From the sequence record NC_104190.1: 64,000 nt of DNA; one strand, given 5' to 3'. The notes under the pieces were generated by a model that made no database searches, had not been told where the DNA came from, and saw nothing but the letters and a program-made list of their open reading frames with translations. This document shows, piece after piece, positions 3,160 to 59,896 of the stretch. The stretch comes from Escherichia phage IME178. The stretch's first letter is position 1, and each line of letters starts with the position of its first letter. Both the position numbers and the translations under genes were made by a program.

Positions 3160-4014
3160 TTATACCGTAAAGGGGTATGCAATAGCGGGGTGATGTTCGT
3201 AACCACGAACAGTAAAATCATCCTTACTTACCCAGATCAATACATCCTCTAGAGTTCGGATATTTGGGTTGATTTCTAGAGTAGGAGGTGCAAAAGGTTC
3301 ACGATCGAATTGCTTATGCTCCATCAAAACATTATACTGATCCTCATAGATATGAAGATTGATAATCTTCTGGCGTGCAATTCCTGGTTTAAGGCCTGTA
3401 ATCTGTGCCATTAATGCTAGAAGCGTATAGCACTGAACCATGTTAAATACTTGGCCTAGCAGGAAGTCATTAGATCTCTGGAAAGAGTTCAGGTATAATG
3501 TATCTCCCAAAATAGAGAACTGATGAGTGTGCATACATGGACGTAAGCAACCCTTTGAGAACTCCCCCGGATTCCAGAACGTTAGAATTTCCCCACGATC
3601 ATCAATGCCCTTCTTCAGGTTATGGTAAATCTTGGCTAGCTGGTCAAACATAAGACCATCGGAATTAGTCCACTGACGTCCTTGAACACCATAGACTCGT
3701 CCCATATCATCCTCACCTTTACGGTATGGATTGTCTAGCCAAGCTAAGTTTTCATTTGCATTAGCATTCCATGTGTTAACACCAATAGCGCGGAATTGTG
3801 CTGCTGAATCATACCCACGTAGATACCCAATCATTTCCATTATTGCTTGTTTTGCAAACGCCTTACGGGTAGTAATAAGTGGAAATTCACCTGCACCTAC
3901 GTTAAAAGTAAAATCTGCGTCAATAATGGTGAGGCAACGAACCCCTGTTCTAGGATTCGTTACCCACTGACCTTCTGATAGAATACGTTTTCCAACTTCG
4001 ATATACTGATTCAT
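3160..4014 (-). CDS. thyA: thymidylate synthase
   Basis: 284 aa; ThyA-like N-terminus ([12 protein letters not shown]...) and conserved core segments. Confidence 0.9.
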
Positions 4015-9244: not shown

Positions 9245-9538
9245 AAATAACACTCCTATAGTGTACTTCGCTAACAGAGGATCAACAAAAAGATCTTGTT
9301 TATCAACTTACAAATATATTATACCAATATATACAGTAAAAAGCAACTACAATTTTAAATAAGCCTATGATATTGCATTTAAATAAAAAATTTGCTTGCT
9401 TTTAACGTGAGATGTGTGATACTAGATAATCATTTTATATCGCGTGCACGAGTGCGTGATTATACAATTTTTAATAGAAATTGGCAAATAAAATTTTTTG
9501 ACTCAGATCATGTTACAGAACTTTATAGTAAAATATTG

Positions 9539-9567
9539 TTGACATCCGCCCTCGAATGAGTTATAAT
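9539..9567 (+). promoter_or_regulatory. consensus sigma70 promoter for nrdD
   Basis: TTGACA-17 nt-TATAAT, then RBS agaaggagag before ATG 9597. Confidence 0.6.
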
Positions 9568-9596
9568 AGTAGTCTTAGTTAGAGAAGGAGAGTATA

Positions 9597-13486: not shown

Positions 13487-13903
13487 ATGTATTCTCTAAA
13501 GAAGCTAACCCAGTTTTGGTTAACTTTTGGCGTACTCTCCCAGCTAGTGTATAATGAGGCTATTAACTCTTTGAAAATATGGTGTGAGAATAACGAAATC
13601 TCCTTTGCTTTTAAAGATGATATTGATGAGGCCCCCTGTATTGGTTTAATTGTGCAGGTAGAGGATGGCCTTGAAGAGATTGTGGGCTGGAAAGAGTTAG
13701 ACGAAATGGGCTTAGTTTTTGCGTTAAACTATAAGCTGTTTATGCCTGCTAAGCATCGCCTCGTTGTTAACTATAAAAATAGTGAATCTCCTGGTTTTCA
13801 GGTTAATGAACGTTATGGTTGGTCTTACTTACCGGAAGAAGTAAATGAGGGGATTCAGAAACTTCGACGTTTCGGGTATATGATCCCAGGTTTAACTGCT
13901 TAA
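13487..13903 (+). CDS. hypothetical protein, paralog 1 of tandem pair
   Basis: shares PCIG, EL..MGL..ALN and PGL segments with next ORF; ATG 13477 with RBS aaggtg is in another frame, so N-terminus uncertain. Confidence 0.45.
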   Translation: MYSLKKLTQFWLTFGVLSQLVYNEAINSLKIWCENNEISFAFKDDIDEAPCIGLIVQVEDGLEEIVGWKELDEMGLVFALNYKLFMPAKHRLVVNYKNSESPGFQVNERYGWSYLPEEVNEGIQKLRRFGYMIPGLTA

Positions 13904-13912
13904 GGAGGCAGA

Positions 13913-14302
13913 ATGGAACAAGTATACTGGCGTCAGATTGACCCTAGTTTGGTGAAGCGTGCGGAGAAGCTGCTACAACGTTGGTTGGGGGTAAGACAAG
14001 CCTCCTTCACTTTTCCTGAGCAGCAAACAGATGATCCCTGTATTGGTGTTTTCCTATCCGGCTACGCCGGGGAATGGGAGATGGACTGGAATGAATTGTC
14101 CGCTATGGGTTTAATTGTTGCCCTAAACTTCTCTATATTCCATCCACGTGGTTTGGCCATATGTCGTGTGCCTGATGACGGTTGTTCGCCCCATCTTTTA
14201 CAGGTGGAAGATGATACTTGGGAGTATACTCCGGATATTCTTAAAGAAGCTAAAGAACAATTAAACCGTGTTGGGATCTATGTTCCGGGATTAAATGACT
14301 AA
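13913..14302 (+). CDS. hypothetical protein, paralog 2 of tandem pair
   Basis: 129 aa; RBS aaggagg before ATG; similar to preceding ORF. Confidence 0.5.
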   Translation: MEQVYWRQIDPSLVKRAEKLLQRWLGVRQASFTFPEQQTDDPCIGVFLSGYAGEWEMDWNELSAMGLIVALNFSIFHPRGLAICRVPDDGCSPHLLQVEDDTWEYTPDILKEAKEQLNRVGIYVPGLND

Positions 14303-14328
14303 TGATTTTTATTAGCTGAACTATGATT

Positions 14329-14354
14329 ACCGAGTCATTTTGGCTCGGTTTTAT
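14329..14354 (+). terminator. weak rho-independent terminator
   Basis: accgag-tcattttgg-ctcggt followed by TTTTA. Confidence 0.4.
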
Positions 14355-14396
14355 CCGTACTCAAGACCAATGATAGCACCATCCGGAAAATTTTAC

Positions 14397-14425
14397 TTGC
14401 AGGATGCCCAAAATCTTGATATAAT
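14397..14425 (+). promoter_or_regulatory. T5-type early promoter
   Basis: TTGCAG-17-TATAAT with AT-rich leader TTGAATTGAGAGA. Confidence 0.5.
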
Positions 14426-14925
14426 ATTTATATTGAATTGAGAGACATTAGTAAAAATTGATTTTGCTAATTTTTCTTGTTTACAATCCGCGATACGGAA
14501 CAGTTAGGCTGCCCCATTAAGGGTTGTTTTAACTGTTACATGTTAGTTTTTAAACAAATAGTTAATAGAATACTTAGCGATCTGCGCCCCATAGGAACCC
14601 TGGTAAGGCCTCGAAGCAACCTAGTATGAGGTGGTTGTGAAGTGAGATGGGAGGAGTGAAAAACTACCGAGACGTGATTCTGTAAGTTATATTGCATCTA
14701 GTATGAGCTAGTATATGAAGCATTAGGTGAGCAAATCTGGCTTAGCGGCCATCCTCAAGGATTTGTGCGATATAGCAAAGCAGCAGCGCAGCGTGAAAGT
14801 GGAAGTTGCCACCCCACTTCAGTATTTGCGATTAATTTGTTGAGAAATTGACAGTAACAGTTGTTCTATTCTTTCTGAATAGTCCTAAAGAAAATTTATT
14901 TCATTTCCAACACAGGAGTATTGTT

Positions 14926-17715
14926 GTGTTCTCAATCCTACAAGGTCATGCAGGATTTCATCGCGATTTAGCCACAGGCAATTGGCGAGAAGTTAAAGCA
15001 GAAGATTATCTTTTTGCTAAAAGATTTTCCTCAAAGCATCCTGAAGGTAAACCAGCTTCAATGCCCTTCAAGTTTGATGTAATTGATGAAGTTGATCCTC
15101 AAACCCTAGTAGAAATGCTTCCTCTTATGAGACGTTTAACGTCTGACCCTCATATCGTTGCGGTACGAGGTAGATGTCTTGCACCTAAAAATAATGTGCG
15201 ACGTAAGAAGGGCAACTTTAATGTATCTAACCCAAGTCATATAATTGCAATGGACGTGGATGGTATTGTGGATACAGGTGGTTGTAACAAGTTTGATCTT
15301 GTTGGCATGGCTCGACATATTATTAGAATGTTAAATAGTATTAGTGAGGATATGTTTCCTCTTGATGCAGGGTTTATCGCTCATGCATCGTCTTCGGCTG
15401 GGCTAAAACCAGGTATCCGAATGCACTTAATACTAGAATCTAATGTTAAAGTAACTCAGGGTCAAATCAAATTCTTATTTACATCTATCAATGAAAGTAG
15501 TAGACAAAAGTATGGCTTTGATATTGCCGACTTAGCTTATTACTCTTCCGTACAGCTCCATTATTTTGCAGATCCGTTATTTACCGATGGTATAGTAGAT
15601 CCGTTTAAAGCGGAGGGTGCTTCACGTCTGGTATTTGTTAAAGGTTCTAAAGTAAATTTACCAAATAATCTGGTTGACTATGAAACAACTAGAGGTGAGT
15701 TTAAGGAGGAGTTTTACTCTTTACTCGATCAAATTAAAGGTAAAAAAGCTGCCTCTGATAAAGTAGAGGAAACTATCAGCGAACTAGAAGAAGCTGAGGA
15801 TGGGGTGTACTTGCGTATTATCCCCAAACTATACCATAGAGCATTAGAGGATGGTGTTGATTTTGCATGGCTAGAAAAAGAAATCCGTCCAGCCTTATCA
15901 GAATATATCGCAACTAAAGATAACAGTCGTAATATTCAAGATTACTTTAATAACGGTCGTAAACAGGCTCTGAAAGCATTTGTTAATAATTCTAAACGCG
16001 ATATACCTGATGTTTTAAAAGGTATTCCACTTAAAAAGCTAGAAACTAACTCCCTAGAAACTGATAACTTCTTGAAATTAAATACTGTGCCACCAGAAGG
16101 TTATATGACTTTTGTAAAAGCAAGTCTAGGTACAGGTAAAACCACGGCGGTTGTGCGTTGGTTAGATTCAGGAGTTATTAAAGGTAATTTCTTAGCAATT
16201 ACCAATACTAGAGCGCTGGTGTCTTCAAATGCTAAGAAATTCAGTGCAGGACAATATGATAAGTCTGTAGATATGCTTAATTTTAAGCGTGGTGCTATTG
16301 ACCGTATGTCCACAACTATTCACTCTTTGCATAAGTTCAAGAGTTTTATTGGTCAAATTGATGCAATCTTTATCGATGAATGTGATGCTGTAATGAATGA
16401 CCTGTTATTCGCCCCGGTTGTTAAACAACGTCGTGAGTGTATTCAGGTTCTTCGGGATATTCTTGCAACTGCAAAAATCATTATATTATCAGATGGTGAT
16501 ATTAGTGCAGAAACAATTGAAGCATATGGTTCCTTGATTGAGTTTGATAAACCGGTTGCATTTTATAATCACCACCGTAAGATGTTGTCAAAAGCTCATG
16601 CTTATGAGTTCCCTGATGAATCCAGTATTTGGGTTGCACTTCAGACTTCTCTAGAGATGGGTGAGAAATCTATTCTGGTATCTGACTGTGGCCCTGATGA
16701 GCTGAATGAGAAGGGCATGGCATTACGTCGTAATACGGGTGCGTTAGTTAAGGAAATCCACTCAAACTCTACGTCTGATGTAGATATTCGACGTATTCTG
16801 GATTACACAACTAATGAGCTAATTGACCAACAAATTGATTGCTTATTATGTAGTCCATCCGTAACTAGTGGTGTTGACTTCAACTATTTTGATAACGTAT
16901 TCGTTATTACTAGAACCAGCAACCAAGCGCCAAACATGCGTTTCCAAGCAATCAGGCGCGACCGTGGTGCTCAGAACATCTATTATTTTATTGATAAATC
17001 TACGAGTGGATTCTCCGCAGGTTCTGAACAATATAACATTGATGAAGGTTGGCTGGAGTTAGCACAGCAATTATACGCACGTCGCAGGGAGCTGGAATCT
17101 AGGAACTATACTAGTACTTTACGTTATTACTTGCTTGATCAGGGTGCAACTATTGATATTTTCAGTGAAAGCTGGGGAACTATCGAAGGTGCAGGCAAAG
17201 AGTATACAGAAGAGCGAATCAAAGCCATTTTGTATTCAACTCCTGATTATTGCGCTCCACGTCATGCGGATGCGTATGAAGCTAAACTACTTCTTGTTCG
17301 CTACTATCATCTTGAGTCTATTAAAGATGTAACAGTTGAGCATGTTGAACAATATATCAAGGATAAACCGAATGATCGAGCTGCATTCTTCCATAAAATG
17401 CACGAGATGTTCTGGGAAGATATTAAGAAGTGTTCAAACGTCACTATCAAACCATTCATAGAAGCTCTGAAAGGTAAGAAGAAAGATTTCTTCCTTAAAA
17501 CAGGTCAGAGTGCTAACCCAAAATATGCGAGAATGTATCTTGGTATGATGGGTATTGGTAAGGATATGAACACTGAAAATATTGTAGACTGGTACAGAAC
17601 CTATTGTAAAATCGAGTGTATGCCAATCCCATATAAGTTTATGACTGATGAGGAGAAACATATGCATGATGAAGCAATGGCAGAGCTAGGTGCTAGAAAT
17701 GACAGTGAAGAATAA
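14926..17715 (+). CDS. putative primase-polymerase (AEP-like)/P-loop helicase fusion; replication initiation protein
   Basis: N-terminal IAMDVDG (DxD) and AHASSSAGLKPGIRMH (S-G...H) resemble AEP prim-pol motifs; Walker A SLGTGKTT, Walker B IFIDECD; start set at GTG 14926 after AGGAG. Confidence 0.55.
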   Translation: MFSILQGHAGFHRDLATGNWREVKAEDYLFAKRFSSKHPEGKPASMPFKFDVIDEVDPQTLVEMLPLMRRLTSDPHIVAVRGRCLAPKNNVRRKKGNFNVSNPSHIIAMDVDGIVDTGGCNKFDLVGMARHIIRMLNSISEDMFPLDAGFIAHASSSAGLKPGIRMHLILESNVKVTQGQIKFLFTSINESSRQKYGFDIADLAYYSSVQLHYFADPLFTDGIVDPFKAEGASRLVFVKGSKVNLPNNLVDYETTRGEFKEEFYSLLDQIKGKKAASDKVEETISELEEAEDGVYLRIIPKLYHRALEDGVDFAWLEKEIRPALSEYIATKDNSRNIQDYFNNGRKQALKAFVNNSKRDIPDVLKGIPLKKLETNSLETDNFLKLNTVPPEGYMTFVKASLGTGKTTAVVRWLDSGVIKGNFLAITNTRALVSSNAKKFSAGQYDKSVDMLNFKRGAIDRMSTTIHSLHKFKSFIGQIDAIFIDECDAVMNDLLFAPVVKQRRECIQVLRDILATAKIIILSDGDISAETIEAYGSLIEFDKPVAFYNHHRKMLSKAHAYEFPDESSIWVALQTSLEMGEKSILVSDCGPDELNEKGMALRRNTGALVKEIHSNSTSDVDIRRILDYTTNELIDQQIDCLLCSPSVTSGVDFNYFDNVFVITRTSNQAPNMRFQAIRRDRGAQNIYYFIDKSTSGFSAGSEQYNIDEGWLELAQQLYARRRELESRNYTSTLRYYLLDQGATIDIFSESWGTIEGAGKEYTEERIKAILYSTPDYCAPRHADAYEAKLLLVRYYHLESIKDVTVEHVEQYIKDKPNDRAAFFHKMHEMFWEDIKKCSNVTIKPFIEALKGKKKDFFLKTGQSANPKYARMYLGMMGIGKDMNTENIVDWYRTYCKIECMPIPYKFMTDEEKHMHDEAMAELGARNDSEE

Positions 17716-43428: not shown

Positions 43429-46262
43429 TCCACAGACTGTTCCCCCTCATCTCCTTCTGCTCTAATACGAAAATATAGTTTTCTATTGATCCCTAGAGCA
43501 TCACTGTTATGGAGAGCAAAATCTGCCTTATTATACATTAATAAATAGTCATAAGTATACTGATTTTCAATACGTACACTTCTTAGCATTCTATTCTGGG
43601 AGTCATAGATTTCCAGAGTATAGAATATACTTTCTATTATATCTTCTTCTGGTATCCTATCCCAAGCTAGTTTTACATCTGGGCCTACAAATTCAGTTAC
43701 ATCCCTGGAAGCCGTATTAGTTACCCTAAAATTAGATACTACACTTAGGTTTTTAGCAGAGTTAAGTTCTATAGATAATGTTACTGGAGAACTTCTTCTA
43801 CCATTTATATCCACAGCCCTTATTTCAAATATCGCTAAGCCTGCAGGCTCTCCAATTATCTCTTGGATCATGCGTTCATTGGGATTTGTTTCTAGTTGCT
43901 GCACAATATAAGGTTCAGCATGACCGGAATGCACGATAGAGTAATAAACTACGTTATTAGTTAAGCTTGGAAGCCAAGATAACTCACCATTTTTTCCTAT
44001 AGAACCAACTAAACCACCAGGTGTAGGGGTATATTTAAAATCCCTAGGAGGAAGAACGTTGTTACTAATATCTGGTATATCATTACCACTATTATCTACT
44101 TGATCAGAGTTGATAAATACATCTTCCCCATACTCCTGTAGGGTAACATTTATCTTTCCTTCCCTAGAGTTTTCGACTTCATCTACTAAAAAGTACTTCT
44201 TATCCCATCCGTAACGGTCGTAGGTAAATGCAATAGCATCGTTAGGCTCAATACCAATGAATTGATATGGTAAAGAAAATGAGAGGGTTCTAGAATACCT
44301 AGATTTCTTAAGTTCTCTGTCTGCAAAACTTCTAGCAGTATAGTAGTTAGTTATATTTGCAAAAGATAACTGTAATTTTTGTCTAAATTTTTATCTTGCT
44401 CTTTATATTTAGAGTTGTAAAAGGTAATAGAGTTAGTTTTCCAGCTAAGAGCTGGGTCTACGATGGATGCTTGAACTGAGTTGAATTTATTTCTACCAGT
44501 AGTATCTGATAGCTCTAAATCACCATAAGTATCCAGAAAATTAATCTCTAATGGAGTATTAGAATATTTTTCTACAGTAATCCTATATTGACCAGATAAG
44601 TTGTTAATAGCCCCACCGTAGGACTCTAGCAAACCTTGCACGTTTTTTAAATACTGATTCAGATGTGTCTAGAATAGTATTCATTTGTACTATTTGTCTA
44701 TTTTCTGCTAATGGATCAGTCCACCCAACATATCTCCAGTATGGCTGCCAGGATACTTGGTAAGATTCATCTATAATATCTAAGATAGCAGCTTCTTGTA
44801 CCAATTGTTGGAGAGGGAACTGATCAATAGCAATGTTTGCACCATACCTATCTGAAGTTAAGTAGTCAAGTGTTTGCCAAATACCATTTAAACTAGTACT
44901 ATTAGCAGTTACTCTACCATCAGAATGATAGATTTTTATCTTCTTACCCTGAATCTCAGCACTAACTTCTGGAATCTCAGTTCTATTTTCATTAATAGTA
45001 AAGCGTACTACCGCGTATGCAGTATCTAATAGTTTATATCTAGCATCCCAGTACTCAGGTCCATTGCCGTTCATATTTTGGAGATAGAACCCACGTTCCT
45101 TCGCTATATTTACTAATACTTCAGAAGCCGTTTGATCAGCTTTTCCATGATAAGTCCAAATCCTTATATCACCATTACCATCGTTATACTTATATTCCTG
45201 GCCATGCACAGAAGGACTACTAGAAGATATTCCTGATGCTATTCTTTGCATGGTGTCTCCGGCTACTTTTTTAACACCGAAACAGGTTCTAGCAGAACTA
45301 TCATTAGAGTCCATACAAATCATGGGGTTATCCCCAAAGGAAAAGTCAAGAAAACCGTCTATCTCTCCTTCAGCAAAAGCATATACTACATAAACTATAT
45401 TAGGATTGTGTAATTCCGTATCCGCAAAAATAGGTATTCCCGGTATTTTCTGTACACCATAAACTACTGGTATATACTTAGCAGCAAGGTTAAAATCTAT
45501 ATCTACTTCTTTAGTAACAGTCTCATAATACTTTTTAAGACTATAACTTCTAGATAGTCCAAATAGCTTTTTCTTAGACTTTAGCTTGTATCTTTCTTCC
45601 TGTACCTGATACTTTGCTAGAATAGAGATACTTTTATTGGCGTGAAAGAAACCGTAGTCTTCTTGGTACTCAAGTCTTTTAGCCCCGTTAGATGGAACTA
45701 ATTGTCCTGCTACAACCTCAAGCCCTCTATGAGAAGCATCATCAGTAAATCTACCGTTAACCCTATCAAAATCATAGAATTGGTTAGAACAATTCCAAGT
45801 AATTGTAGAGGTTCCAACCCCAGAAATACTAATGTTGTCCTTAATACCTCCACCAGTAATTCTCCCTCTAAAGTATAATAAAGGGCCATTTGTGTCTGGG
45901 TCTACAGGTAAAATAGAACCATCCTCTGTAATAATTGCTTGGTGGATTGATACTAGTCTATCTAAAAAGGACACCCCATTCTGCACTAGTTTCAGTACTT
46001 CATCCTGCGCTGTACCTGTAATAGTAAAAGATAGACTGCCAATAGATAAATCTCTGTTTTGTTTATGTGTGCTAATAGACTTAACTTTACCGGCCTGGTA
46101 CAAAATACCATTATATAGTACATCTCTAAAATAGTCAGTTAAGTAAATAAAAGCAGTACTAGTACCAGTAGAGCCGGGTAATTCTAGAGAAATTAGACTA
46201 GCAGTTTTTATTCTGCTATTATTTTTTAAGTAGTTTCTAGCACTATCTAATATTTTTTTCAT
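43413..46262 (-). CDS. baseplate hub protein (T5 pb3-like), frame-interrupted at two sites
   Basis: three co-linear reading-frame segments (552 aa, ~85 aa, ~327 aa) summing to ~960 aa, close to T5 pb3 size; C-terminal FnIII-like repeats. Confidence 0.5.
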
Positions 46263-46872
46263 AGACTTTCCCGTAAATTTAATGAGATGTTGGAGTATGT
46301 TCCGTTATTATTTAGTGTAGATCCAAAAGCATCACCATTCATGAGTTTTGTTCTAAATAGTATTCCATTAAATACTGGCTTCTCCGCTCCAGTAGTAGTT
46401 ATAAATAAATCAGGGTATAAGTTTATGGACCATGTATTACCTGATTTGTTAAATGATGTTATTTTATATACTTTTGGGTGGTTAGATAGCTTAAATAGAT
46501 CCCCTGGTTTTGGAGTACCTGTAAGAAGCCCTTTTGTATCCATAGTTATATTAGAACCCTTCTGTCCAGCAGGTATACTTACTAGACTAGTATTACCTCT
46601 AACTCTAAAAGCTTCGTATTGGGGTAATATAACGTCTATATAACCACCAGTCCTTTTGTATTCTAGAATAAAAGCATCTAGAACACTATATTCATCTGGA
46701 AATAATTCTGGATAAGAAATATTTATACCCCAGTATTGAGCAGATACCTTACTTCGTTAACTTTACCATTTGGTAACTCATCACGAATTACTGGGTCATT
46801 GTCAATCAGGTTAACACTTTCGAATCCTAAGCCTGAAAGTTCTGGATTCGTGTATGGGTCTGGTAATCTCAT
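46259..46872 (-). CDS. distal tail protein (T5 pb9-like), frame-interrupted
   Basis: ATG 46872 with RBS aaagaggagaaa; frame changes near the C4 run 46727-46730; the two segments sum to ~204 aa. Confidence 0.45.
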
Positions 46873-46944
46873 AGTTAATTTCTCCTCTTTAATAACAATA
46901 TTATAATAGTATTAGAAAATTTTATCAAGAAATTTTTATTTTTC

Positions 46945-46975
46945 CATAAAGAAAAGGAGGACTCAAAGTCCTCCT
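46945..46975 (-). terminator. rho-independent terminator after tape measure gene
   Basis: aggaggact-caa-agtcctcct then TTTCTTTATGG on minus strand. Confidence 0.55.
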
Positions 46976-46981
46976 CCAGTT

Positions 46982-58245: not shown

Positions 58246-59459
58246 TCTTTATCTCCCTCGGTGGAACCTTGAGGTCTACCACCTTCTTGACCGGATACGC
58301 CTGTTGCAGAACCAGCGACGTTAGCAGGAATACGAATCTTATTCATCTGCTCATCATCTAAAGGCTCAAGGTTCAGCTCTAAACGAGCTTCGTTACCAGT
58401 TATAATACCATTATTAACCAATGAGGTTAAATGTTTAGCCTCAGATTCTTTATCTGGTGTTAATGCAGCTACTTCCTTAGTATTAGGAGTAATCTTATAA
58501 CCAAAAAAGAAAGTAAGAGAACTAGTCAGCTTGTTCAGCATAGGGATGATAGTCATGTAATAGAACAGTTCGATGTTTGGTCGAATGTTCGCGTTATTAC
58601 CACCATCAAGTAGCACTTGCGGAACACCAAAGGCTAGACAGATAGATTTATTAAATCCTTCGATGTCTTCCTTAAAGTCTAGATCTTTAAAAGAGGATAT
58701 TTGGGAGTACGGTTTAGCTTTCATACCACCATCTAGAATCAGGACAGAAGACTGACCCGTACTAGGATTATAATCGAGTTGTAATTCTTCTTGTTTACGC
58801 TCACGCAATTTCTTGTTCAGAATTTCATCCGTCTCAAGAATAAGACCAATCACGGTTCCGTTATCGAGAAACTTCTCTTTAAAGTTAAGCATCTTGGAAC
58901 GCTTCTCAAGAGAATCAATAACAGTAGCAACACGAGATTGTCCAGAAATTTGAGAATTTGTGCCACACACGTAACTGTTATCCTTTATAAAGATAATCTC
59001 ATCTACGCGATAGTCTATCTGGTTATTAAATATAAATTTTTTGATAAACTTATTGGCATCTGCCTCTACTTGCATTAGTGCAGCAGGGACATGATAAAGT
59101 GCTGTGCCATCCCAATAGATGTATGCACAACCTTCAAAAAGTAGGTCAGTGACTACAAGTCTACGGAATGTGCTTATATCCATGAATGGATTAGGTCGTA
59201 CATTTAAGAGAGTGTCTAGAGTCTTTGCCTTGATGCCATTGGCATACGTGACAATATTATATTTATCTCCGACAGTATAAGAACACTCCGCCGCACTATC
59301 TATAACCATATTAGCAGTTCTATTGAGAATCTCAATTTTACTGTAGGCTTGTCCAGTGGTAAAAGGCTTACGGTTAGTGCGATGACTAACTGGTTCCATG
59401 TCTCTTATAATACGTTGACCCGGATTTAGCTTTTCAGTAATCCAGCTTTTAAAACCCAT
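58242..59459 (-). CDS. portal protein (T5 pb7-like)
   Basis: 405 aa; size and position between terminase and capsid genes. Confidence 0.6.
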   Translation of the reverse strand: MGFKSWITEKLNPGQRIIRDMEPVSHRTNRKPFTTGQAYSKIEILNRTANMVIDSAAECSYTVGDKYNIVTYANGIKAKTLDTLLNVRPNPFMDISTFRRLVVTDLLFEGCAYIYWDGTALYHVPAALMQVEADANKFIKKFIFNNQIDYRVDEIIFIKDNSYVCGTNSQISGQSRVATVIDSLEKRSKMLNFKEKFLDNGTVIGLILETDEILNKKLRERKQEELQLDYNPSTGQSSVLILDGGMKAKPYSQISSFKDLDFKEDIEGFNKSICLAFGVPQVLLDGGNNANIRPNIELFYYMTIIPMLNKLTSSLTFFFGYKITPNTKEVAALTPDKESEAKHLTSLVNNGIITGNEARLELNLEPLDDEQMNKIRIPANVAGSATGVSGQEGGRPQGSTEGDKE

Positions 59460-59896
59460 TATAAGAACCTTGCGAATCCTGATTTTGTTTCAGTCTTGAC
59501 TTGTGTCTTTTCTTGAGGATTCTGTAATTTGTCTTTCTGCTTTTGAACCCACACTTTTTGCTTATTAGCAGAAAATAAAGGAGGTTCTTTTGTGTAAACC
59601 TTATGTAATAATTGGTGATGGTGTACACAAAGGGTAACAGTGTCTTCTACTAGCTCATGCCTATATCGATCATAGAATGCCGTCCTATTTGAAAGGACTA
59701 TTTCTTCGTCAGTGAAATCCAATTGGAGTTCTTTAGCAAATTTTTTAACTAGTAGAGACACCGTATGGTAATGATGAAGCTCTAATTCTTCAGCACAACC
59801 GCAGATAGCACATTGAGAGTCTTTTTTATATTGACTTTTTATTCCGTCTCTCATAAGGGATATAGCATCGCGTTTATATTTTATATTGCTTGCCAT
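59459..59896 (-). CDS. HNH endonuclease
   Basis: CAICGC...LELHHYH...CVHHHQLLH; start set at MASNIKY (RBS gaggagaa); stop shares TAATG with portal start. Confidence 0.65.
   Translation of the reverse strand: MASNIKYKRDAISLMRDGIKSQYKKDSQCAICGCAEELELHHYHTVSLLVKKFAKELQLDFTDEEIVLSNRTAFYDRYRHELVEDTVTLCVHHHQLLHKVYTKEPPLFSANKQKVWVQKQKDKLQNPQEKTQVKTETKSGFARFL

Follow-up and report, generated by a model that had tools for sequence, protein, structure and literature searches.

A large structured RNA predicted upstream of the initiator-helicase gene of T5-like phages

What is encoded in the long gap before the replication helicase gene of T5-like phages? We explored this question in the genome of Escherichia phage IME178 (NC_104190.1), which is a Tequintavirus; the window is the whole stretch of 64,000 nucleotides (nt) that was analysed. 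The original prediction, made from the sequence alone, described positions 14303-14925 as an island without open reading frames (ORFs) and proposed a promoter-driven noncoding RNA, a structured 5' untranslated region (UTR) or an origin-like region. Comparison of related loci has shown the island to encode a predicted RNA of the + strand that is large and complex in its fold. The existence and the fold of this putative RNA are well supported. The first two proposals are strongly supported by a conserved, covarying and strand-specific structure downstream of a promoter.

The segment 14303-14847 (545 nt) is the longest stretch of the window, on both strands, without an ORF of at least 60 amino acids (aa) when ATG, GTG and TTG are counted as starts, as had been claimed. 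The program-made ORF that follows (14848-17715) begins at a TTG. The intergenic gap extends to 14925, and thus covers 14303-14925, because the GTG at 14926, with AGGAG upstream of it at 14914-14918, is the start homologous to that of T5.108 in phage T5. Stop codons, which had been noted in all frames, number 9-18 per frame in the region. A protein-coding gene was rejected because no ORF keeps its position or frame from one sequence type to another. The records examined annotate the stretch as blank, as promoter or as a doubtful small ORF. The G+C content is 0.42-0.47 at 14550-14850 versus 0.29-0.38 on both sides, in agreement with the GC-richer centre described before. The 10-nt direct repeat of the original prediction is also real: CTAGTATGAG occurs at 14621 and 14698 in two copies of 15 nt that are 87% identical. 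However, it is not conserved outside the sequence type of the window, and it is probably incidental because there are only two copies, limited to that type.

With Salmonella phage vB_Sen_TUMS_E3 the region shares 98% identity. In total, 533 phage records match the region, nearly all of them from T5-like phages of Salmonella, Escherichia and Klebsiella. Comparison within the T5 family, one of the checks suggested earlier, was informative. Phage T5 (NC_005859) has the same gap at 58928-59544, between T5.107 and T5.108 (annotated "replication origin binding"), and its record places a putative terminator and a promoter at the start of the gap. The window and T5 are 92.5% identical up to 14567 and 87.5% identical from 14853; the approximately 285 nt between these points cannot be aligned by blastn and are of equal length in the two phages. 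The identity, 85-100% on both flanks, collapses inside a long helix that we call the clamp. The fold is kept in T5 and the core sequence is replaced.

The comparison covered phage records and 45 related loci taken from collections of viral and metagenome sequences. At least six core sequence types were distinguished: A (the window), B (T5), H (Yersinia phage phiR2-01), C (Klebsiella-like), E (locus L038) and F (Pectobacterium phage My1). These six types belong to T5-like phages (Markadamsvirinae). The architecture and the positions and lengths of the helices are common to at least six types, with a core identity of only about 55% and a flank identity of about 90%. The core length is constant within about 8 nt across types, and in each of the types 157-165 nt separate the first core helix from CUUAGCGG. 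Short islands (GAUACGGAACAGUUNGGCUGCCCCAU, GAGAAGUG, GCUUAGCGGC and GUUGCCACCCC) are conserved and the intervening sequence is replaced. Such a pattern is the signature expected of a structured RNA.

The RNA is numbered from window position 14430, and all of its elements are given on the + strand. In each of the six types, helices P1-P12 can be placed at equivalent positions. The original prediction had mentioned "several short hairpins"; structure is indeed present, but it is far larger and more elaborate, with a long-range fold. P1 is an extended 5' hairpin (14439-14479, RNA 10-50) made of UGAGAGA/UUUCUUG plus AUUAGUAAAA/UUUUGCUAAU (folding energy, dG = -12.3; z-score, z = -4.1). It covaries between types; examples are GAGAG/CUCUC (type C) and UUAGACAAGUU/GAUUUGUCUAA (type E). 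The J segment, GAUACGGAACAGUUAGGCUGCCCCAU (14492-14517, RNA 63-88), is recognised by its conservation among types and is mostly single-stranded. Types A, B, E, F and H share it almost without change, and type C retains it in recognisable form; it contains a mini-hairpin of 4 base pairs (bp) whose pairs never vary (CAGU-UAG-GCUG, 14501-14511).

The clamp, P2, is formed by an A/U-rich 5' arm (14530-14574, RNA 101-145) and a 3' arm (14821-14863, RNA 392-434) that contains two listed inverted repeats (I1 and I8). It has 39 bp in the window (dG = -33.2, z = -9.0 against the shuffled arm). The clamp is present in 6/6 types with unrelated sequences (28-39 bp, dG = -24 to -36 kcal/mol), and its z-scores against the shuffled arm range from -4.8 to -10.3. 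It closes a three-way junction whose arms are P11 and P3a/P3, the latter leading into the multi-branched P3-P10 domain of about 210 nt.

The multi-branched core (14577-14819, about 245 nt) is supported by two covariance models (R1 and R2, described below), by pair counts and by RNAalifold. Helix P3a/P3 (14577-14587 with 14786-14794, RNA 148-158 with 357-365) encloses the P4-P5-P6 domain (14588-14651), P7 plus GAGACGUG (14652-14676) and the P8-P9-P10 three-way domain (14680-14783); P11 (14797-14819, RNA 368-390) completes the core. Hairpin P7 is followed on its 3' side by GAGAAGUG. The P10 hairpin (14732-14765) has an asymmetric 3' internal loop and an invariant terminal loop, UUAGCG (14742-14747), which is possibly a UAGC tetraloop closed by a U-G pair. 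All types, even the distant D and G, have the P10 sequence CUUAGCGG unchanged, and its flanking stems covary (CAAAUC/GAUUUG, AAUAGAAUC/GGUUCUAUU, GAUUGAGG/CCUCAAUU and GAUACG/CGUAUU). On the 3' side of the clamp lies P12 (14866-14882), a small hairpin with the stem CUAUUC/GAAUAG, identified by its fold (dG = -5.2, z = -5.6) and by its covariation in 6/6 types. P12 was rejected as a terminator since no U-run follows the hairpin. About 30 unstructured nt come next, and then the Shine-Dalgarno (SD) sequence and the start codon. In addition, the loops of P6 (14622-14632) and P11 (14803-14813) are possibly complementary type by type: GUUAU/AUAAC in B, GUCAU/GUGAC in C, UGGG/UCCA in H, GGU(G)/(C)ACC in A and E, and GGU/AUC in F. 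This loop-loop contact was seen by eye, is not in register between types and may be a chance match, and we did not retain it.

The helices were defined by hand, which biases them to canonical pairs, and were then checked with tests independent of the hand-drawn set. In the within-type test, one representative served to fix the helices, and the variants were placed on them by alignment of sequence alone. For types A and B combined, 11 changes were double compensatory, 22 were wobble-compatible and 7 were disruptive. Model R1 was built from type A sequences only, with the hand-drawn structure. It matches the window at 14577-14822 and finds types E, F and C at full length and at the same relative position (88.6, 57.6 and 25.8 bits, respectively). 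It also finds 10/10 metagenome loci, including a new variant at 126.9 bits. Model R2 was built from T5-type sequences only and finds type H (106.8 bits), type C and the window copy at 14577-14819 (21.8 bits, E about 9e-6). Thus, the covariance-model check proposed earlier links the six types reciprocally. R2 gave one more match in the window (3398-3456, 11.5 bits, E = 0.03), which is weak, has most of the model deleted and is probably spurious.

In the model-fitted alignments, 97.1% of the cells were paired for R1 and 92.9% for R2, against 33-43% and 34-46% when the partners were slid by 1-3 columns. The pairs changed on both sides were 47/67 for R1 and 48/64 for R2; with slid partners they were 6-12 and 6-17. 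The observed values were reached by 0/500 shuffles for each model. RNAalifold independently predicted essentially the same fold. Two other measures did not separate the region from controls. The folding energy of the single sequence was not discriminating (z = -2.3 on the + strand and -2.8 on the - strand), and the longest uninterrupted helix with G-U allowed was not beyond shuffles, so that the whole-arm energy test was used for the clamp instead.

The strand was tested by means of G-U pairs. On the + strand, 22 single changes preserve pairing by way of G-U; on the - strand, only 2 would. This wobble asymmetry points to a + strand RNA, and + is the strand read from the promoter. The result bears on whether the island works as DNA, either as an iteron or cruciform origin or as a protein-binding array, or whether it encodes small proteins. 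The region adjoins an "origin binding" gene, and some records annotate a 33-aa coding sequence (CDS) over the terminator and the promoter. However, paired segments are separated by as much as 330 nt and accept G-U pairs but no A-C, which argues for single-stranded + strand RNA and not for duplex DNA. The repeats are at chance level only (two copies, 11-15 nt), and the long inverted repeats are the RNA clamp. The density of stop codons and the lack of an ORF conserved in position and frame speak against small proteins. An A/T-rich unwinding element may lie in parts of 14400-14560 and 14800-14900 with a G+C content of 0.29-0.34; these parts are promoter and clamp sequence, in a genome that is A/T-rich throughout. 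We consider both a DNA-level element and small proteins hardly credible. The origin-like region of the original prediction, taken as DNA, gains nothing from these data, which contain no iterons and in which the conserved features are G-U-tolerant RNA helices.

An intrinsic terminator of the upstream operon is located at 14329-14353 (+ strand). It consists of a 9-bp hairpin (14329-14349; dG = -13.2, z = -5.1) followed by UUUUAU, and the homologous site of T5 (58952-58976) is annotated as a terminator. Our automated terminator scan used a stricter T-run rule and did not list this site. An early sigma-70 promoter is recognised on the + strand at 14385-14425 from three lines of evidence: the sequence itself, the promoter annotated in T5 at the homologous 58999-59073, and 78% identity with P-K28a, an early promoter of T5, over 55 nt. 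It has an A/T-rich upstream block, the -35 hexamer TTGCAG (14397-14402), a 17-nt spacer and the extended -10 element TGaTATAAT (14417-14425). The consensus scan missed it because TTGCAG matches the -35 consensus at only 3/6 positions. Both the terminator and the T5-type promoter (14397-14425) were thus rightly placed at the start of the island by the original prediction. Transcription would start at about 14430-14433. The terminator scan found no terminator-like site between the core and the helicase gene, so the transcript is probably first made as a 5' leader of about 495 nt on the initiator-helicase mRNA. On the - strand, the consensus scan, which is a weak test, detected no promoter-like site inside 14303-14925; its sole - strand site is at 15034-15005, inside the helicase gene.

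The gene downstream, whose SD sequence (AGGAG) and GTG start lie at 14914-14928 (+ strand), is the homologue of T5.108 and encodes 929 aa (GTG 14926-17715). The protein matches the Pfam family Herpes_ori_bp at residues 394-533 and the NCBIfam family CyRepA1, a plasmid Rep family, at residues 393-722 (121.6 bits, below the cut-off of 200). It also matches herpesvirus origin-binding proteins in the PDB. Its reading as an initiator-like helicase of the UL9/Rep type is supported by these matches. The gene had been called a primase-helicase. The helicase and initiator part of that name is supported. The primase part is only putative: residues 1-360 at the N-terminus have no Pfam or NCBIfam match, and a motif of the form hhhDVD, similar to that of archaeo-eukaryotic primases, was noticed on visual inspection alone. 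A hypervariable linker directly precedes the Walker A motif (window 16000-16199, residues approximately 359-395), where the DNA identity to T5 falls to 61-71% in comparison with about 90% in the remaining gene.

Two observations concern the exchange of the core between phages. The break points between the window and T5 lie within the outer clamp stack, which is common to both phages, and type H looks chimeric, with a B-like 5' half and a C-like 3' half. Judged from these patterns, some phages appear to exchange the clamped core as one cassette, by which the internal pairings are kept together. The A or B core type co-segregates with the protein linker in 30 loci. However, type H, with an A-like linker beside another core, breaks this association. 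Co-adaptation of core and linker is not claimed, since type H breaks the rule and linkage could explain the association anyway.

More distant Demerecviridae keep 430 to more than 1000 noncoding nt before the helicase gene, with unrecognisable sequence (L040:700-1470, L034:940-1500, L161:1068-1500, L162:1-1041 and L165:1-1458). This set includes Providencia/Proteus-like (type D), L040 (type G), Serratia (type K), Vibrio and Aeromonas phages, and the leaders of these groups were not found by either single-type model. L034 and L040 keep a P10-like hairpin with a UUAGCG loop. In L040 a consensus promoter (TTGACA-18-TATAAT) lies between the RNA-like region and the helicase gene. The Providencia-type leader has a 12-bp long-range helix around the P10-like hairpin, which does not exceed the longest of 30 shuffles (16). 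In the Aeromonas TS3 leader, an 18-bp clamp around about 620 nt does exceed the longest of 30 shuffles (16).

How would such an RNA act? RNase III-processed RNAs have an enclosing helix of at least about 20 bp, and here the helix has 28-39 bp in six types. In known cases, the enclosed RNA is set free, or the message downstream is remodelled, once the helix is cut. We lean towards a cis-acting leader that is processed at its clamp, an explanation to which we give a little better than an even chance. The folded domain would act in cis on the initiator-helicase message. Host RNase III would cut P2, which is near-continuous double-stranded RNA of suitable size, and detach the folded core from the coding part of the message. 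How long the helicase message lasts and how well it is translated would be determined by this cut, and the core would be freed as a separate RNA of about 250-330 nt. A protein or a second nucleic acid could then bind to the invariant loop and the conserved junctions of the freed RNA. The stems of rRNA leader and trailer, the sites of T7 early mRNAs and the lambda N leader are comparable to the T5-type clamp, in which arms about 290 nt apart form a helix of at least 30 bp around a folded RNA. However, the T5-type clamp encloses neither rRNA nor tRNA, and its cutting is predicted only. The T7 and lambda N sites are single irregular hairpins and, unlike the T5-type clamp, enclose no domain.

Several points weigh against this processed leader. 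Sequestration of the SD sequence by the structured domain is not conserved, the predicted partners being different in every type, so the sequence reveals neither a simple translational switch nor any other regulatory output. In L040, the promoter between the RNA-like region and the gene could free the gene from its leader, a point in favour of an independent function of the RNA. A core of about 245 nt with such an ornate fold would seem to exceed the apparent needs of mRNA processing or stabilisation. Transcription, the transcript ends and RNase III cutting are all predictions. Moreover, the model-fitted alignments lean towards the structure of the model, and the hand-picked helices are canonical by construction; the within-type test and the reciprocal detection are free of this model-fit bias.

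Riboswitch and T-box leaders are also conserved folded domains in the 5' UTR. By analogy, the core could be a sensor that binds a small molecule or ion, related for example to the nucleotide pool, and adjusts helicase expression. The 5' UTR position and the conserved unpaired junction nucleotides (GAGAAGUG, UUAGCG and the J segment) would suit such a sensor. However, no expression platform was found, that is, no terminator after the core and no conserved helix sequestering the SD. The RNA is far larger than typical aptamers and, unlike those leaders, has no known aptamer fold, with no Rfam match. The T5 type lacks several of the conserved loops. We consider a riboswitch-like sensor very improbable.

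The position of the RNA raises the question of the replication origin. Transcription from the early promoter may open the A/T-rich DNA at an origin beside its initiator gene, and the folded transcript may then form or position a persistent RNA-DNA hybrid by which DNA synthesis is primed or the helicase is loaded. The RNA is always directly upstream of an initiator-like, UL9-like helicase gene whose product has the sub-threshold CyRepA1 match, and distant Demerecviridae keep their long noncoding stretch at the equivalent site. A strong promoter, an untranslated structured RNA and A/T-rich clamp arms are at hand, and in L040 the gene has its own promoter, so that the RNA is not needed there as a leader. 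Internal origins, observed by electron microscopy, are reported for T5 in a passage of PMC3632103 that cites Bourguignon 1976, which would agree with an origin at this locus. However, a study based on retron editing described a strand bias in T5 (PMC10055335), which points to replication that runs mainly in one direction from a single genome end; such end-started replication argues against an origin transcript. The locus is only a candidate origin. The region contains no iterons or other repeated protein-binding sites and no consensus - strand promoter for an antisense regulator, and the RNA type is not strictly coupled to the protein linker, as type H with its A-like linker demonstrates. An origin transcript is a serious alternative but on balance unlikely.

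ColE1 RNA II, the R-loops at T4 oriF and oriG, and the T7 origins resemble this RNA in their strong promoter, their untranslated RNA of several hundred nt with a conserved fold, and their place beside replication functions. In contrast to them, the RNA considered here runs into a protein-coding gene and has no evident antisense partner. ColE1 RNA II is a row of stem-loops, whereas the T5-type RNA is a clamped multi-branch domain, and the Rfam search detected no sequence or model similarity between this RNA and any of these systems. A bolder form of the idea makes the RNA a working partner of the T5 replication initiator, either as a primer or R-loop that sites replication or as a cofactor that directs the helicase, with the core as a swapped specificity cassette. 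We hold this partnership to be doubtful and put it forward as speculation.

It is also conceivable that the core acts in trans and has no tie to the downstream gene, as a stand-alone scaffold of a ribonucleoprotein (RNP) or as a decoy against a host defence or enzyme. The ornate fold, the invariant loop and the conserved junctions recall large bacterial and phage RNAs of unknown function, and the clamp would permit excision. The cassette-like swaps between close relatives suggest diversifying pressure or frequent exchange, and the promoter of L040 between the RNA-like region and the gene would fit as well. GOLLD, ROOL, OLE, raiA and HEARO are similar in having 250-500 nt, many covarying helices and invariant islands, and GOLLD and ROOL occur in phages. 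Their Rfam models gave no match with E up to 10. Unlike them, the T5-type RNA is tied to one gene neighbourhood and one phage family and stands in a 5' leader. It was seen only upstream of the helicase gene, and R1 and R2 place a single copy in the window. A three-motif DNA pattern searched in IMG/VR matched only T5-like contigs, and four matches in bacterial metagenome-assembled genomes were dismissed as chance since R1 does not confirm them. Besides, no partner or target is identifiable. A trans-acting RNA of this kind is a serious alternative too, though rather unlikely in our estimation.

The metagenome scan yielded 10 loci, nearly all of known types. A 16-base pattern of the J segment was also tried in IMG/VR, where it was swamped by an unrelated, probably coding, family and gave no new types. 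The bridge RNA of IS110 and the omega RNA of IscB and TnpB are other structured RNAs located just upstream of a gene for a nucleic-acid enzyme, with variable loops beside an invariant element. However, the enzyme is a recombinase or nuclease in those systems and a UL9/Rep-type helicase here; the analogy is positional only, and no guide-target complementarity was found, none having been sought.

Known RNA families were searched with Rfam 15 (4227 models). There was no match with E up to 10 in 13800-15400 and nothing at gathering score across the whole window, so the search for a known family, also proposed earlier, came back empty. In 11 related loci, Rfam gave three sub-threshold matches to small RNAs or leaders (22-29 bits versus gathering scores of 50-114). 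Two resemblances seen by eye, to the CR-V segment of RNase P (ACAGAAC...CCGGCU) and to the S element of group I introns (AAUAGUCC), were set aside because they have no Rfam support. A self-splicing intron of group I or II was rejected as well: there is no Rfam intron match, and the upstream gene ends in a stop codon, followed by the terminator and the promoter. The next longest stretches of the window without an ORF of at least 60 aa, 43935-44350 (416 nt), 9254-9596 (343 nt) and 46644-46981 (338 nt), have no Rfam match at gathering score either. Within the limited collection of literature searched, we found no account of this RNA. The RNA is a new family of large structured RNA.

Some features at or near the 5' end of the leader deserve mention. 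An optional insertion of about 96 nt occurs between P1 and the J segment (site approximately 14479) in four loci (L166:951-1058, L036:952-1059, L014:953-1060 and L027:955-1062) and is absent from the window. It is 96-100% identical across phages with three core types and is flanked by direct repeats of TTTTTCTT. No other copy was found in the window or in 20 kb of T5. Its appearance is that of a small module, mobile or duplicated, whose presence at this site the RNA would tolerate. Upstream of the gap, at 13487-14302, there are two genes (138 and 129 aa) that are tandem paralogues because both carry Pfam DUF7415. Between the upstream gene and the leader, Salmonella phage S131 has an extra CDS of 63 aa (L003:1549-1740) and Escherichia phage SUT_E1620 has one of 150 aa (L004:1696-2148). 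This junction is therefore an insertion hot spot.

The region is found in several hundred sequenced relatives of T5, a classical model phage. Large, ornate, covarying RNAs are rare and have repeatedly proved to be ribozymes, RNP scaffolds or guides. Genome annotations of the Demerecviridae miss this gene-sized feature, a folded RNA domain that is exchanged between phages as a unit. The RNA stands first in the cluster of replication genes, just ahead of the presumed initiator, and the initiation of T5 replication is poorly understood. Thus, the RNA provides a concrete and easily mutated handle on that process. If the RNA does prove to be a partner of the initiator, a component of T5 replication initiation would have been identified, and it would represent RNA-defined replication initiation in a lytic double-stranded DNA phage.

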